From: a virus
Lineage: Duplodnaviria > Heunggongvirae > Uroviricota > Caudoviricetes
DNA: 5,689 nt
Virus record (IMG/VR): IMGVR_UViG_2778260996_000001
Span: 1 to 5,689 of that record
Direction: 5' to 3' (one strand)
Position 1 is the first letter of the stretch. Each line of letters starts with the position of its first letter. Of the stretch, positions 1 through 5,689 are shown piece by piece. Below the pieces are notes generated by a model. The model was not told where the DNA came from. It made no database searches and worked only from the letters and a program-made list of their open reading frames with translations. The translations under genes and the position numbers were made by a program.

Positions 1-501
1 AAAACCTGGTCCCTGACGCATCCGGTGGATGACGCAATTACCCTGCTGACACAGGGCGGCAGACTGACCTGTAAGTTCCGCCTGTCAGGCGCACTGACCA
101 ACAATCAGTTCGGGCTGGGGATTTATCTGTATACGGATGCTCCCGTTCCTGATGGTGTGGCGATGACGGGTACCGGTAATCCGTTCCTGATGTCGTACTT
201 CACTCAGACCACTGACGGCAGAGTGAATCTGATGCATCACAGGAAAGCCGGAAACACGAAGCTGGGGGAGTTCGGCGATTACGGTAACGACTGGCAGACG
301 CTGGAGCTGGTGTTCACCGCCGGCAGTGCCACGGTTACTCCGAAACTGAATGGAGTGGCTGGCCCGGCATTCCAGGTTATAAAAGACAGTCTGACACTGG
401 GACTGAATGCGCTGACGCTGACGGATGTTACAAAAAATGCAGCGTATGGCGTTGAGATAGAAAGTCTGGTGCTGGAGATAAATGCACCGGCATCATCATA
501 A
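1..501 (+). CDS. hypothetical protein, C-terminal portion (gene starts upstream of window); beta-rich, possibly lectin/carbohydrate-binding-like
   Basis: Reading frame 1 is open from nt 1 (KTWSLTHPV...) to the TAA at 499-501, so the GTG at 25 is probably internal. Gly/Thr/Val-rich composition suggests a beta-sandwich; no motif I can assign to a family. It sits immediately upstream of the lysis cassette, the slot where lambdoid prophages carry morons. Confidence 0.55.
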
Positions 502-586
502 AAAGTGAGCCAGTCAAATGGAAGGTATCGTTAAACTCACCGGTAGTGTCAGTGGGTCGTCTGAGACGCCTGCATGAGTTATCAGA

Positions 587-615
587 GCCATCAGTACTTA
601 ACTGGTGGCTTTTTT
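587..615 (+). terminator. intrinsic-terminator-like hairpin upstream of the holin gene (candidate late-operon tR'-type terminator)
   Basis: GCCATCAG (587-594) / 7-nt loop / CTGGTGGC (602-609) forms an 8-bp stem with one G-U pair, followed directly by TTTTTT (610-615). It lies 35 nt upstream of the holin ATG. Confidence 0.45.
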
Positions 616-650
616 ATTGTTGTCAGCTTCCGGATAACGGGAGACGGGGT

Positions 651-866
651 ATGTACCAGATGGAAAAAATCACAACAGGTGTGTCATACACCACGTCAGC
701 GGTGGGGACGGGATACTGGTTACTGCAGCTGCTGGACAAAGTCTCTCCGTCCCAGTGGGTGGCAATCGGTGTGCTGGGGAGTCTGCTGTTTGGCCTGCTG
801 ACGTATCTGACAAACCTTTATTTCAAGATTAAAGAAGATAAGCGCAAGGCTGCGAGAGGTGAATAA
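651..866 (+). CDS. S: class II holin / pinholin, phage 21 S21-like, with dual-start motif
   Basis: ATG at 651 preceded by GGGAGA (639-644) at 6-nt spacing. The 71-aa product [25 protein letters not shown]...[36 protein letters not shown] has two TMDs and a charged C-terminus, and closely resembles S21 / E. coli essD as I recall them. Met1 and Met4 give the antiholin/holin dual start. The GTG-extended ORF from 546 is rejected because it spans the terminator hairpin. Confidence 0.9.
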
Positions 867-1363
867 TGCCTCCATCATTACGAAAAGCCGTTGCTGCTGC
901 TATTGGTGGTGGGGCTGTTGCCATAGCGTCTGTGCTCATCACTGGTCCGAGTGGTGACGATGGCCTGGAAGGTGTCAGCTACATACCATACGAAGATATC
1001 GTTGGCGTATGGACTGTATGTCATGGACACACCGGAAAAGACATCATGCCCGGTAAAACGTATACCGAAGCAGAATGCAAAGCCCTCCTGAATAAAGACC
1101 TTGCCACGGTCGCCAGACAAATTAACCCGTACATCAAAATCGATATACCGGAAACAACGCGCGGCGCTCTTTACTCGTTCGTTTACAACGTGGGCGCTGG
1201 CAATTTCAGAACATCGACGCTTCTTCGCAAAATAAACCAGGGCGATATCAAAGGCGCATGTGATCAGCTACGGCGCTGGACATACGCTGGCGGTAAGCAA
1301 TGGAAAGGGCTGATGACTCGCCGTGAGATTGAGCGTGAAGTCTGTTTGTGGGGGCAACAATGA
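866..1363 (+). CDS. R: SAR endolysin (phage lysozyme, T4-lysozyme-like muramidase), R21-like
   Basis: ATG overlaps the holin stop (TAATG at 864-868). The N-terminus [27 protein letters not shown] is a Gly/Ala-rich signal-anchor-release domain, followed by a lysozyme core ([23 protein letters not shown] ... [21 protein letters not shown]). Near-identical to phage 21 R as recalled. Confidence 0.93.
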
Positions 1364-1797
1364 GCAGAGTAACCGCGATTATCTACGTTCTGGTCATCTG
1401 CCTCATCGTCTGCCTTTCATGGGCTGTTAATCATTACCGTGATAACGCCATCGCCTACAAAGAGCAGCGCGATAAAGCCACATCCATCATCGCTGATATG
1501 CAGAAGCGGCAACGTGATGTAGCAGAACTTGACGCCAGATACACAAAGGAGCTTGCTGATGCTAATGCGACTATCGAAAGTCTCCGTGCTGATGTTTCTG
1601 CTGGGCGTAAGCGCCTGCAAGTCTCCGCCACCTGTGCAAAGTCAACGACCGGAGCCAGCAGCATGGGCGATGGAGAAAGCCCAGGACTTACAGCAGATGC
1701 TGAACTCAATTATTACCGTCTCCGAGGTGGAATCGACAAGATAACCGCGCAGGTTAACTACCTGCAGGAATACATCAGGACGCAGTGCTTAAAATAA
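1360..1797 (+). CDS. Rz: Rz i-spanin (inner-membrane spanin subunit)
   Basis: ATGA overlap with the endolysin stop (1360-1363), GGGG at 1351-1354 as RBS. The product [39 protein letters not shown]... has an N-terminal TMD plus coiled-coil periplasmic region and strongly resembles lambda Rz from memory. The GTG at 1348 in the ORF track is a less likely start. Confidence 0.88.
1559..1744 (+). CDS. Rz1: Rz1 o-spanin (outer-membrane lipoprotein spanin), embedded in Rz in the +1 frame
   Basis: ATG at 1559 preceded by AAGGAG (1546-1551). The product [20 protein letters not shown]|[16 protein letters not shown]... has a signal peptide with lipobox-like VSAC followed by a proline-rich mature segment, the classic Rz1 architecture, and lies wholly inside Rz. 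Confidence 0.8.
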
Positions 1798-1837
1798 TTT
1801 TAATTTCACTGAAATTTAACAAGTGACTTTCAGGAAA

Positions 1838-1864
1838 ATGCCTCGCAGATGCGGGGCATTTTTG
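1838..1864 (+). terminator. rho-independent terminator downstream of Rz/Rz1 (possibly bidirectional)
   Basis: ATGCCTCGC (1838-1846) / AGAT loop / GCGGGGCAT (1851-1859) forms a 9-bp GC-rich stem with one G-U pair, followed by TTTT(G) and preceded by AAAA. Confidence 0.7.
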
Positions 1865-2015
1865 TACCGGTATTTCACCGCGCACCGCAGCGCACAATAA
1901 ACACCGAACCTGACCCTTTGGAATGGGCCTTTGAGGATACCAGTTAGTGCTGGCGAGCCTCGGTGGGCTGGTTTCCTGTGCGGCAAAGGTTCATTTCAAA
2001 GAAGCAGGCAACGCC

Positions 2016-2564
2016 ATGAATGAATTAATTGCGAATCATGACTTCGACTTTCGCCAGTTAGTTACCGCAGCAGAAGGTCAACCGGTAACTGACACCTTCC
2101 AGATTGCCAGGGCATTTGGTAAACGCCATCAGCATGTGATTAGGGCTATTAAATGTTTGAGATGTTCTGAGGAATTCTCGACAACCCATTTTTGGGCCGT
2201 CGAGAAAATCAATGGCTTAGGTATTTTTGACAAGAAACAGATTTACTACCGCATGGACTTTAGTGGCTTCGTTATGCTGGTTATGGGATTTAACGGGGCA
2301 AAAGCCGATGCTGTTAAAGAAGCCTATATCAATGCGTTTAACTGGATGTCAGCAGAACTCCGTAAGTACAGCGAAAGTTATGAAGCAGAACGTAACGCCG
2401 TAATGCTGGAGTACATGAAAGAGAAGGATGTCGCCAGCATGTCAGGCCGTCTGCTCAATCGCTGGGGGAGAACGAAAAAACCTCAATTGCTTGCAAAGCT
2501 GGAACGTCTGGAGAGACAGGGACAGTTTTTATTACCGGGATTCGATAAAGGTATTCAAGCCTGA
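2016..2564 (+). CDS. rha: Rha-family phage regulatory protein (antirepressor-like, Phage_pRha domain)
   Basis: The translation contains the Rha signature ...VTDTFQIARAFGKRHQHVIRAIKCL... and ...FSGFVMLVMGFNGAKADAVKEAYINAF.... ATG at 2016 (MNELIANHDFDF...) is chosen over the upstream GTG at 1947; both are possible starts. The position after the lysis genes matches where rha sits in P22-like genomes. Confidence 0.82.
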   Translation: MNELIANHDFDFRQLVTAAEGQPVTDTFQIARAFGKRHQHVIRAIKCLRCSEEFSTTHFWAVEKINGLGIFDKKQIYYRMDFSGFVMLVMGFNGAKADAVKEAYINAFNWMSAELRKYSESYEAERNAVMLEYMKEKDVASMSGRLLNRWGRTKKPQLLAKLERLERQGQFLLPGFDKGIQA

Positions 2565-2862
2565 CACATTATGCGCTGTATCGTCGCCGTATTCCCGCAT
2601 TAACCATGACCGTAGCCCGACAGGGAGACTCCTCTGCGCGAGTGTGCGGGGATAATCAAAAACGATACACACCGGGGTTTACCGCGTTAACGGAGCGCGG
2701 CGTTGTCCCCTCATGGTCGCTGGTTCGGTGCGATGGTGGAAGAAACCGGACGATGTGTTACCTCGCAAGACCTGTTATGTCATGTGTCTGATTTGTGATT
2801 TAAGTCGGATAATTGTCGTTGCCATTAAGCAGAGGATTGATGGCCGACAGGGTGGCATTGTT

Positions 2863-2879
2863 AGAATAAGACTTATTCT
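2863..2879. promoter_or_regulatory. perfect 8-bp inverted repeat with 1-bp spacer (candidate operator) in the promoter region of the TonB-C lipoprotein gene
   Basis: AGAATAAG-A-CTTATTCT at 2863-2879, about 20 nt upstream of the lipoprotein start. It overlaps a possible -10 (TAGAAT 2862-2867); a weak -35 candidate TTGATG lies at 2837-2842 with a long 19-nt spacer. Confidence 0.35.
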
Positions 2880-2899
2880 TATCTGTGCCGGGAATGAAA

Positions 2900-3226
2900 A
2901 TGAAAAGAAATCTTCCGTTAATTATTTTGTTGTCTTCTCTGGTTATGGGCTGTACGCAACATAAAACAGATATGCCCCGACAGTTGGTTAAGGCATTACC
3001 ACAATATCCGGCCTATGCAGCGGCAAATTATATAAAGGGACGGGTTGATGTGAAGTTTGATATTGGTGCTGATGGTACTGTCACCCGAATTGAGTTTATC
3101 CGTTCAGAGCCGCACCATCTGTTTGATGAGCAGGTTGTAAAGGCGATGGCAAAATGGCGATTTGAGAAGGACAGGCCGCGTAAAGGCGTGAAGAAAACGT
3201 TTATCTTTAGTCCTTCTGCACCCTGA
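2900..3226 (+). CDS. small secreted (probable lipo)protein consisting of a free-standing TonB C-terminal domain
   Basis: ATG at 2900 with GGGA (2890-2893) at 6-nt spacing; ATG 2894 and GTG 2885 are alternatives. Signal peptide MKRNLPLIILLSSLVMG|C with lipobox-like VMGC. The mature part LPQYPAYAAANYIKGRVDVKFDIGADGTVTRIEFIRSEPHHLFDEQVVKAMAKWRFE matches the TonB_C signature (compare E. coli TonB [55 protein letters not shown], from memory). No proline-rich linker or N-terminal ExbBD-coupling TMD is present. Confidence 0.8.
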   Translation: MKRNLPLIILLSSLVMGCTQHKTDMPRQLVKALPQYPAYAAANYIKGRVDVKFDIGADGTVTRIEFIRSEPHHLFDEQVVKAMAKWRFEKDRPRKGVKKTFIFSPSAP

Positions 3227-3357
3227 TTATTTCATCAGAAATTAATTATCACTCTGTTGTTATTCTGTACATTCCGGCTGGGTAAGTCTTGTTCCGCCGG
3301 GTATGAAGATGAAATATTGTTGGAGGACAGTGGGTACCTGCTCCTGTAACCGAACGT

Positions 3358-3558
3358 TCATTTCTCGTTATTTGTCATGCTGGCCGGACGCAGATGCGTT
3401 GCATCTGTTGCCAGCCTTCTCCTGCAGGCTTCAATAACCCACGCTGAAAAGTTACCGGAACCTTTATGTTCAAGGGCGATATTGATCTGTTCAATCATGT
3501 GATTGGGGAAACGGATATTGCGGATTGTGGTTCTGCGGGTCCGGTTTTTCGATGACAT
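3358..3558 (-). CDS. small basic ribbon-helix-helix-like DNA-binding protein (possibly YlcI/YnfO-like prophage protein family; family assignment from memory only)
   Basis: Minus-strand ATG (complement of 3556-3558) preceded by AGAGGA at 6-nt spacing. The 66-aa product has an Arg-rich N-terminus and a predicted beta-strand TIRNIRFP followed by two helices (MIEQINIALEHKG / NFSAWVIEACRRRL), an Arc/MetJ/CopG-like layout. No competing + strand ORF exists in 3227-3599. Confidence 0.65.
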   Translation of the reverse strand: MSSKNRTRRTTIRNIRFPNHMIEQINIALEHKGSGNFSAWVIEACRRRLATDATHLRPASMTNNEK

Positions 3559-3599
3559 TTTCTTTCCTCTGGTGACAAGCTATATGGAGAGGATTTTAC

Positions 3600-3965
3600 A
3601 TGGCTGTGCTTCGTACGTTACCGGGCAGAATCAAAACTCTGAACACCCGGCGGGTGAATGTCCTGAAGGGTGAACAGCGTCGGGTCAGTGGTAGTGCCCG
3701 GGTTTCCCTCAAGCGTCGTATCTGGCTGAGGGATGCCGGACAGTGCTGTCTCTGTGGGCGTGTGGTTGACCTTTGTGACAGTGAACTTGAGCACCGCATT
3801 GCACTTCAGTTCGGTGGTGGTAATGAGGAGACGAATCTCTGGACGCTCTGTACCGAATGCCATCGACAAAAGTCTGCTCGTGAAGCGGCGAGTGGTATGC
3901 CAGACCCGACGCTGCCGGAGGTGTCCGGAGGTAGTGGCAGAGCGGACGACATCATCGGACTGTAA
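3600..3965 (+). CDS. phage-associated HNH endonuclease (terminase-associated type)
   Basis: ATG at 3600 preceded by GGAGAGGA (3586-3593). The product carries an HNH/zinc-finger motif: CCLCG...DSELEHRIALQFGG...NLWTLCTECHRQK. Its position immediately upstream of the terminase small and large subunit genes is typical of HK97-like cos packaging modules. Confidence 0.9.
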   Translation: MAVLRTLPGRIKTLNTRRVNVLKGEQRRVSGSARVSLKRRIWLRDAGQCCLCGRVVDLCDSELEHRIALQFGGGNEETNLWTLCTECHRQKSAREAASGMPDPTLPEVSGGSGRADDIIGL

Positions 3966-4025
3966 CCCGACCCGGGGGGGGTATCATCCGGCGTAAAAAA
4001 AGATCGCTTTGGACACCGCCCCCCC
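3966..4025. other. candidate cos cleavage region: G8 run and C7 run flanking a 34-bp AT-rich segment
   Basis: GGGGGGGG at 3974-3981 and CCCCCCC at 4019-4025, non-coding, between the HNH stop and the GTTAAC repeat cluster. The assignment as cosN-like is inference from position only. Confidence 0.3.
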
Positions 4026-4057
4026 TCTCACGCAGAGAAAAAATTCCCGTTTCAGGG

Positions 4058-4185
4058 CAGTTAACATGTTAACTGGCTGTCCGGGCATTTTTGCGGTTTT
4101 TATCTTTATTATTCAGTTTGTTGTGCGGAAAAAATGTTAACTGGCTTTTTCAGCAAATGTTAACCAGGCAGCAGTTAACATTTGC
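4058..4185. repeat. cluster of five GTTAAC-containing repeats (18-bp perfect palindrome, 13-bp direct repeat, 12-bp inverted repeat): candidate terminase small-subunit binding sites (cosB/R-site-like)
   Basis: CAGTTAACATGTTAACTG (4058-4075) is a perfect palindrome. ATGTTAACTGGCT occurs at 4066-4078 and 4134-4146. GCAAATGTTAAC (4153-4164) and GTTAACATTTGC (4174-4185) are inverted arms with a 9-bp spacer. T-tract-rich bendable DNA lies between them (4085-4135). All of this sits directly upstream of the terS start. Confidence 0.5.
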
Positions 4186-4255
4186 GGCATGAGACGCCGG
4201 GAAAAATGGGCTGAACCATACCCGGCTGAGTGCGTTCTGGACCCGGGAGGAGGCT

Positions 4256-4819
4256 GTGCTGACAACGCAAAAACGAAAATTTGCGCTGGCGCTCATGTCC
4301 GGGAAAAACAAAACAGCGTCAGCCATTGCCGCTGGTTATTCGGCGAAGACCGCCAGGGTTAAAGGCTCGCAGCTGGCAAAAGATCCGGAGGTGCTTGCGT
4401 TTATAGCCCGTAAACAATGCGAGACGGTGGAGGTGGATGAGGTTCCTGTTTACCGGCAGAAAAAATCAGAGCAGGAGGATAAACCCCGTCGCCGTGAGGC
4501 GGCTGCAATACCACAGCCGGACGAAAACAATCCGGAGATGCCTCCGCCCGCGGTGATATCTCATGGTATTGAATATATGGAGGATGGTCTTCCCGATCCG
4601 GTGAAAGCGATGGGGCGTCTTCTGGTGGAGAACATTAATACCGACCCCAGGCTGGCGCTGGATGCGGCTTATAAGCTGGCGCAGTTCACGCACCACAAAA
4701 AAGGGGATGCCGGTAAAAAATCGGCAAAAGGTGACGCCGCGAAAAAAGCGGCTAACCGTTTTGCGGTGCCACCACCACCCCGCCTGGTGGTGAATAATGA
4801 TAATGAGGGCAACGGATGA
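4256..4819 (+). CDS. terS: terminase small subunit (phage Terminase_2/P27-type HTH small subunit)
   Basis: GTG at 4256 directly after GGGAGGAGG (4245-4253). The N-terminus KRKFALALMSGKNKTASAIAAGYSAKTARVKGSQLAKDPEVLAFI matches the small-terminase HTH signature (AGYS.K.A ... L.K.P.V..I). ATGA overlap with the downstream large-subunit gene (4816-4819). Confidence 0.85.
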   Translation: MLTTQKRKFALALMSGKNKTASAIAAGYSAKTARVKGSQLAKDPEVLAFIARKQCETVEVDEVPVYRQKKSEQEDKPRRREAAAIPQPDENNPEMPPPAVISHGIEYMEDGLPDPVKAMGRLLVENINTDPRLALDAAYKLAQFTHHKKGDAGKKSAKGDAAKKAANRFAVPPPPRLVVNNDNEGNG

Positions 4820-5616
4820 TACCTGTGTGGAGCACGGCCTGCCCGGACTGGGCAGAGCGCCTGAAAAAGGGGCTGTCGATTATTCCGGCTCCGATTTATC
4901 CGGAGCAGGCCGCACATGCCCTGGCGATTTTTAAACAACTGCGGATTGTGGATGCACCTGGTAGCCCTACGTTCGGGGAGTCCTGTGCACCGTGGGTGTT
5001 TGACCTGGTGGCGGCCCTGTTTGGCTCCTACGATGCGCAGACCGGTGTACGCCATATCAAGGAAGTTTTTATCCTTATCCCCAAGAAAAACTCGAAGTCC
5101 ACGCTGGCCGCGGGGATCATGATGACTGCACTGTTACTGAACTGGCGGCAGGCGGCGGGTTACACGATTCTGGCCCCGACTGTGGAGGTGGCGGCCAACG
5201 CCTTCAACCCTGCCCGGGATATGGTACGACGTGACGATGATCTGGATGACCTCTGCCAGGTACAGACCCATATCCGGACCATCACCCACCGGGTGACGGA
5301 CACCACCCTGAAGGTGGTGGCAGCCGATCCGAATACGGTGTCCGGTATCAAGTCCGTGGGTACGCTGATTGATGAGTTGTGGCTGTTTGGCAAGCAGTGC
5401 AAGGCGGAGGACATGTTACGTGAAGCCATAGGCGGCCTTGCCTCCCGCCCGGAAGGGTTTGTGGTGTATACGACCACCCAGTCGAATGAACCGCCCGCCG
5501 GGGTGTTCAGACAGAAACTGCAGTACGCCCGGGATGTGCGCGACGGCAAAATTCATGATCCGCACTTTCTGCCGGTGATATTTGAACACCCTCCTGAAAT
5601 GGTGGAAAGCGGGTAA
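4816..5616 (+). CDS. terL: terminase large subunit, N-terminal ATPase domain only; ORF ends prematurely (probably disrupted or pseudogenised)
   Basis: Translationally coupled to terS. Walker A-like P-loop ILIPKKNSKST and Walker B-like VGTLIDELWLFG (compare HK97 TerL GRKNGKS / IIDELHAH, from memory). The ORF stops at 5614-5616 after 266 aa and all three forward frames hit stops by 5665, whereas large terminases are typically over 400 aa with a C-terminal nuclease domain. Confidence 0.8.
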   Translation: MIPVWSTACPDWAERLKKGLSIIPAPIYPEQAAHALAIFKQLRIVDAPGSPTFGESCAPWVFDLVAALFGSYDAQTGVRHIKEVFILIPKKNSKSTLAAGIMMTALLLNWRQAAGYTILAPTVEVAANAFNPARDMVRRDDDLDDLCQVQTHIRTITHRVTDTTLKVVAADPNTVSGIKSVGTLIDELWLFGKQCKAEDMLREAIGGLASRPEGFVVYTTTQSNEPPAGVFRQKLQYARDVRDGKIHDPHFLPVIFEHPPEMVESG

Positions 5617-5689
5617 GCGTCGTCTCAGCACCGTCTGGCAGATCCTGAAATTCCTGAGAGAATAGTGGACACCAAATATGGTGGACGCT

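Follow-up and report, generated by a model that had tools for sequence, protein, structure and literature searches.

The sequence analyzed here is a stretch of 5,689 nucleotides (the window), which corresponds to the complete contig NJVV01000132.1 (5689 bp) of the draft assembly GCA_002461905.1, as identified by an exact protein match. Most of its length is occupied by genes of a prophage late region. The first gene, encoding a DUF6645 protein (1-501), is cut by the start of the contig, in addition to the break at the contig end that is the main subject of this report. An Rz-like spanin gene (Phage_lysis) is located at 1348-1797 (+), and within it lies a second ORF in the +1 frame (1529-1744, +), whose product combines a proline-rich tail with a lipobox-like motif (…FLLGVSAC…). 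Embedded genes for Rz1 o-spanins are usually arranged in this way. Between the genes for a Rha-family regulator and a YlcI/YnfO protein is a prophage cargo gene (2885-3226, +), whose predicted product of 113 aa combines a lipoprotein-like signal (…LVMGC) with a TonB C-terminal domain (TIGR01352, 2.8e-15). An ORF 99% identical to it occurs in prophages of O145:H28 and other E. coli, where it is annotated as a 'TonB family protein'. An HNH endonuclease gene (3600-3965, +) lies directly upstream of the terS and terL terminase genes, as in the HK97-type arrangement. The HNH gene also scored 30 bits against the NCBIfam IscB model, for which the cut-off is 175, and this weak match reflects the shared HNH domain only.

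The late region (1-5612) is mosaic. Its best match among complete genomes covers 87% of the region at ~97% identity, and at least 80% of the region is present in one place in only 4 of 5,426 genomes; each of the modules is common on its own.

Truncation of the TerL reading frame

The last gene of the window encodes the terminase large subunit, TerL, of the Pfam Terminase_1 lineage. As read from the sequence, its ORF extends from 4816 to 5616 and specifies 266 aa, ending with a TAA codon at 5614-5616. An earlier note on this DNA had drawn attention to this early stop and had observed that every forward frame is shut by 5665, leaving no contiguous nuclease domain. Both observations are borne out: the two remaining forward frames are closed by a TGA at 5655-5657 and a TAG at 5663-5665, and intact homologues of the protein have 553 aa.

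The truncated protein was compared with one of these homologues, WP_001296023.1 of E. coli strain 4/1-1, whose gene is preceded by an HNH endonuclease gene and then a small terminase gene, as in the window. The two proteins are identical at 263 of 266 positions (99%), without gaps, over residues 1-266. Walker motifs are found in the TerL translation at residues 90-96 (KKNSKST) and 184-188 (LIDEL), and residues 63-224 match the Pfam TerL_ATPase family (PF03354, E = 4.3e-12). On the intact homologue, the TerL_nuclease family (PF20441) occupies residues 276-535. The window ORF, ending at residue 266, has no C-terminal RNase H-like nuclease domain in the same polypeptide. The break site is in the inter-domain linker and the entire nuclease domain is lost from the TerL ORF. 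Since this domain is absent from the ORF and present in the intact homologue, terL is here a disrupted pseudogene that does not provide a functional TerL.

Intact terL genes sharing 95-100% DNA identity with the window copy are found in more than 1,200 complete E. coli genomes and in ~90 phage records, mostly of Stx-converting phages. In every match the identity of the window to the intact gene runs to 5613 and ends there. Alignment to intact TerL, which had been suggested as a way of locating the breakpoint, thus places it at window position 5613, with 99% identity before it. The idea that intact homologues might share the end point of the window ORF does not hold, as a single 553-aa gene continues through the breakpoint in these homologues. 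What remains of terL in the window, as judged by homology, is a 5' fragment (4816-5612, +) consisting of codons 1-265 and the first two bases of codon 266, and it includes the whole of the ATPase domain.

An IS66-family terminus at the end of the contig

The sequence that follows the break is that of an insertion sequence. The last 77 nt of the window (5613-5689, +) are 100% identical to positions 6003-6079 of a reference copy (L001), where they form the left terminus of a 2454-bp IS66-family element of the ISEc22 type. The edge of a mobile element had been one of the alternatives offered in the earlier note and, given this identity, it was the correct one. When 5,426 E. coli genomes were searched with the last 80 nt of the window, 1,781 of them contained matches, 3,816 in total and as many as 14 in a single genome; matches were also found in 1,341 plasmids from Escherichia, Klebsiella, Enterobacter, Citrobacter and Salmonella. 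More than 2,200 E. coli records carry the stretch. Such a spread over many chromosomal places and plasmids is typical of a mobile element. Mobility is likewise apparent from the presence of the element in multiple copies at unrelated sites: the 77 nt abut 47 other distinct flanks, including those in tail tape measure, gpJ, tail chaperone and hemagglutinin-repeat genes and in the IncFII repA region. Many of the chromosomal ISEc22 copies in E. coli are inside prophage morphogenesis genes (tape measure, gpJ, tail assembly chaperone and major tail; for example L001, L002, L008 and L009), and one ISEc22 insertion, in a hemagglutinin-repeat/two-partner-secretion gene, is common to many strains.

The 2454-bp element is annotated with tnpA (IS66-like accessory), tnpB (IS66 family accessory) and an 'IS66-like element ISEc22 family transposase'; the name ISEc22 in the full copies is that assigned by NCBI's PGAP annotation pipeline. 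Pfam matches to the products of its ORFs are HTH_Tnp_1, TnpB_IS66 (1.6e-38), and DDE_Tnp_IS66 (7.8e-107) accompanied by zf-IS66, LZ_Tnp_IS66 and DDE_Tnp_IS66_C. The tnpA, tnpB and tnpC (DDE) genes are seen in full copies that have the identical 77-nt left end, and their positions here fall past the end of the contig. The ATG of tnpA, at 6084 in L001, would correspond to window position 5694, which is five bases beyond the last base of the contig. Beyond its first 77 nt ISEc22 continues as ATCCATGAAATCCTTAACC..., and a full-length element is presumably present beyond the contig end.

The termini of the element are well defined in L001, where it begins with GTAAGCG, ends with CGCTTAC and is flanked by an 8-bp duplication, GGTTCAGG. 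Direct comparison of the left inverted repeat (IRL) of L001 with the reverse complement of the right one (IRR) gave 18 matches in 30 positions, the first 8 being identical; the automated repeat search did not report terminal inverted repeats for the IS, since they are too imperfect. From this comparison the imperfect IRL can be placed at 5613-5642 (+) of the window, where it starts GTAAGCGT, with GTAAGCG at 5613-5619. The IS and terL point in the same direction, with the IRL adjoining the 5' part of the gene. GTAAGCG is also the start of the inverted repeat in other IS66-family members, and a GTAAGCG terminus together with a TnpA/TnpB/DDE organisation matches the description of classic IS66 members (PMC12888890). 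Alignment with intact terL and with IS copies shows window position 5613 to be the first G of the IS terminus, so that the in-frame TAA of the truncated TerL (5614-5616, +) is supplied by the IS end, read as G-TAA-GCG.

The contig reaches exactly 77 nt into the IS, and several further IMG/VR draft contigs stop 95-103 nt inside the same element. Short-read assemblers usually end contigs a k-mer-sized distance into a multicopy repeat, and a k of 77 is common in de Bruijn assembly. The end of the sequence at 5689 is therefore probably an assembly break, produced because the assembler could not extend through the multicopy repeat.

It is highly probable that ISEc22, or an element very closely related to it that has an identical left end, has inserted in terL of a lambdoid E. 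coli prophage. The element would have transposed into terL of a prophage of the HK97 type (HNH-TerS-TerL), between the ATPase and nuclease domains, entering the gene after the second base of codon 266. The intact terL target reads ...GGTGGAAAGCGGGACTAACC, and perfect 8-bp target-site duplications (TSDs) were found for 14 of the 19 full ISEc22 copies that have readable flanks. By analogy with these copies, the TSD is predicted to be GAAAGCGG; its left copy would occupy 5605-5612, and its second copy would be found beyond the contig, at a distance of ~2.45 kb. The right junction of a simple insertion would then read as the right end of the IS (...GCACGCTTAC), followed by GAAAGCGG and by GACTAACCTGCTGATGG... 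(terL from codon 267 onward), which can also be written as ...TTGCTGCACGCTTAC / GAAAGCGG / GACTAACCTGCTGATGGAAAAC.... The left junction, between terL codon 266 and ISEc22, was absent from 5,426 complete E. coli genomes, from IMG/VR and from JGI metagenome contigs, and the predicted right junction was absent from IMG/VR. The insertion is probably strain-specific and recent, an assessment based on one assembly.

The insertion need not have remained in its original form. The IS may have entered terL and then, by later recombination between IS copies (deletion or inversion), the 3' half of terL and the downstream morphogenesis genes may have been displaced or lost. The element is well suited to such events, being multicopy with up to 14 places per genome, and 5 of the 19 full copies lack a TSD, their 8-bp flanks failing to match. 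In addition, 5 of 25 sampled left ends are without a normal right end at ~2454 nt, which would be expected of a truncated IS as well as of a rearrangement. On the other side, the 14 copies with a TSD are simple insertions, and we regard a rearranged locus as possible though rather unlikely. Exchanged flanks were seen for two copies in the same genome: L024 carries GAAAAGCG on its left side and TATTTACT on its right, and the latter is also the left flank of L041. The copies considered here are L024, L028 and L041 (IMG/VR UViG 2526164665 / 2526164663) and also L018, L019, L035 and L055. Such swapped or mismatched flanks indicate that IS copies inside prophage regions have recombined, by inversion or deletion.

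Far less probable is an assembly artefact, in which the final 77 nt would have been misjoined to terL and the gene would be intact in the organism. The junction is indeed at the end of a draft contig and was found nowhere else, but just 1-3 bases are common to terL and the IS at this point, which is not enough to confuse a k-mer graph. Moreover, the changeover from terL to the IS takes place at the very first base of the IS inverted repeat (GTAAGCG). A join at precisely this base is the signature of transposition, and is therefore what is expected of a transposition event, not of a random misjoin.

Short words shared by terL and the element

The earlier note had been led to a different cause by short sequences that occur on both sides of the break. 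The 15-nt sequence TCCTGAAATGGTGGA spans the last TerL codons (5592-5606). Its first part recurs as TCCTGAAAT at 5643-5651 (+), matching TerL 5592-5600, and its last part as ATGGTGGA at 5678-5685, matching TerL 5599-5606; these correspond to IS positions 31-39 and 66-73, respectively. A further word, ATAGTGGAC, is located at 5662-5670 (IS positions 50-58) and forms with ATGGTGGAC an IS-internal direct repeat with 16-nt spacing (5662-5686, +), the second copy of which is the one that matches TerL 5599-5606. This repeat is just upstream of the tnpA start, as are two occurrences of TCCTGA in the IS left end (at 5643 and 5652). The direct repeats of the left end (TCCTGA and ATAGTGGAC / ATGGTGGAC) may be regulatory or protein-binding sites of the IS.

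Sharing of this extent is rarer than chance. For a pre-specified flank of 53 bases, only ~5e-4 of real-DNA windows or shuffles have 15 or more bases covered by 8-mers that are also present in the following 77 nt. One explanation would be that IS66 elements choose targets by similarity to their own subterminal sequence, which would account for a 15-nt split match lying 7-21 nt upstream of the insertion. This would amount to an undescribed preference of the IS66 family for target DNA similar to the sites at which its own transposase or accessory proteins bind, and the ATGGTGGAC / ATAGTGGAC direct repeat in the IS end could be a protein-binding site. However, among the 47 other distinct ISEc22 left flanks, which were drawn from complete E. 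coli genomes, plasmids, GTDB genomes and IMG/VR contigs, none had comparable word sharing and just one shared a single 8-mer. A rule of this kind is unsupported by the survey and we consider it very doubtful. Given the survey, the match of the IS words to the last TerL codons is treated as a coincidence, an improbable one that was noticed after the fact.

The cause favoured in the earlier note, a small local insertion or duplication scar, is less probable again, to the point of being refuted. In that account the split copies of TCCTGAAATGGTGGA were a footprint of the event, and ATGGTGGA an 8-bp target-site duplication. The words do exist at the positions given for them and are shared exactly, and the rarity of such sharing could be taken in favour of a scar, but the downstream copies are part of the fixed interior of ISEc22. 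Of 11 IS copies sampled from unrelated sites, 10 have exactly this 77-nt stretch. Because the downstream words are invariant in IS copies elsewhere, they are neither a footprint nor a target duplication of the event in terL, and nothing has been duplicated. The split repeats TCCTGAAAT and ATGGTGGA are interior to the IS, at nt 31-39 and 66-73, rather than flanking it, and the true position for a TSD is the 8 bp abutting GTAAGCG. The cause is thus an insertion sequence rather than a scar. Nor would reading from the ATG at 5678 restore TerL: this codon is in a different frame from TerL and opens, in full IS copies, an ORF of only 13 codons (MVDAIHEILNRSA, then a stop) that ends before tnpA.

Finally, a naturally split terminase with separate ATPase and nuclease proteins, or a terL restored by frameshifting, an intron or an intein, might be considered in that the ORF ends at a domain boundary with nothing further, but it can be dismissed as exceedingly improbable, since the homologues at 95-100% DNA identity counted above have terL as one 553-aa gene, which refutes a natural split, and the interrupting DNA is an IS with a DDE transposase.

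Consequences and comparison with known systems

Insertion of ISEc22 would have several consequences for the prophage. The IS terminus brings an immediate in-frame stop, leaving a 266-aa fragment with the ATPase only, and the nuclease part (residues ~276-535) would be shifted ~2.45 kb downstream, without a start signal, or would no longer be adjacent. The IS would also part the late promoter from the downstream head and tail genes. A terminase without an ATPase-fused nuclease would presumably be unable to cut concatemers at cos. With the nuclease domain removed, the prophage should therefore be packaging-defective unless the IS is lost or a related resident prophage gives TerL in trans. The earlier note had reached the same view of packaging, and the absence of the nuclease domain supports it.

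The insertion, seen where a draft contig ends, involves a known IS and a known prophage gene; it is an ordinary event, of a kind already known, and matters little outside annotation. For annotation, terL should be recorded as a pseudogene interrupted by ISEc22, the prophage as probably packaging-defective and the end of the contig as a repeat-induced assembly break. The locus also illustrates that short 'repeats' beside a truncated gene at a contig edge can be intrinsic sequence of an IS end.

The element resembles ISEc22 in its 77-nt left end, its terminal GTAAGCG, its orientation and its distance to the tnpA start. It differs in that only the first 77 of 2454 nt are present here, so that another IS66 member or a derivative with the same IRL is possible. 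The interrupted gene is closest to the HK97-type TerL of lambdoid and Stx-converting E. coli prophages (WP_001296023.1; phage YYZ-2008; Stx1a/Stx2a-converting), with which it shares 99% protein identity over residues 1-266 and the gene order HNH endonuclease - TerS (Terminase_2) - TerL, although the window copy ends at residue 266 of 553, without PF20441. Compared with the IS-inactivated cryptic prophages of E. coli, the locus is distinguished by its terL codon 266::ISEc22 junction, which none of the 5,426 complete genomes, IMG/VR or the JGI metagenomes contain, and it has in common with them an IS inside a late or morphogenesis gene.
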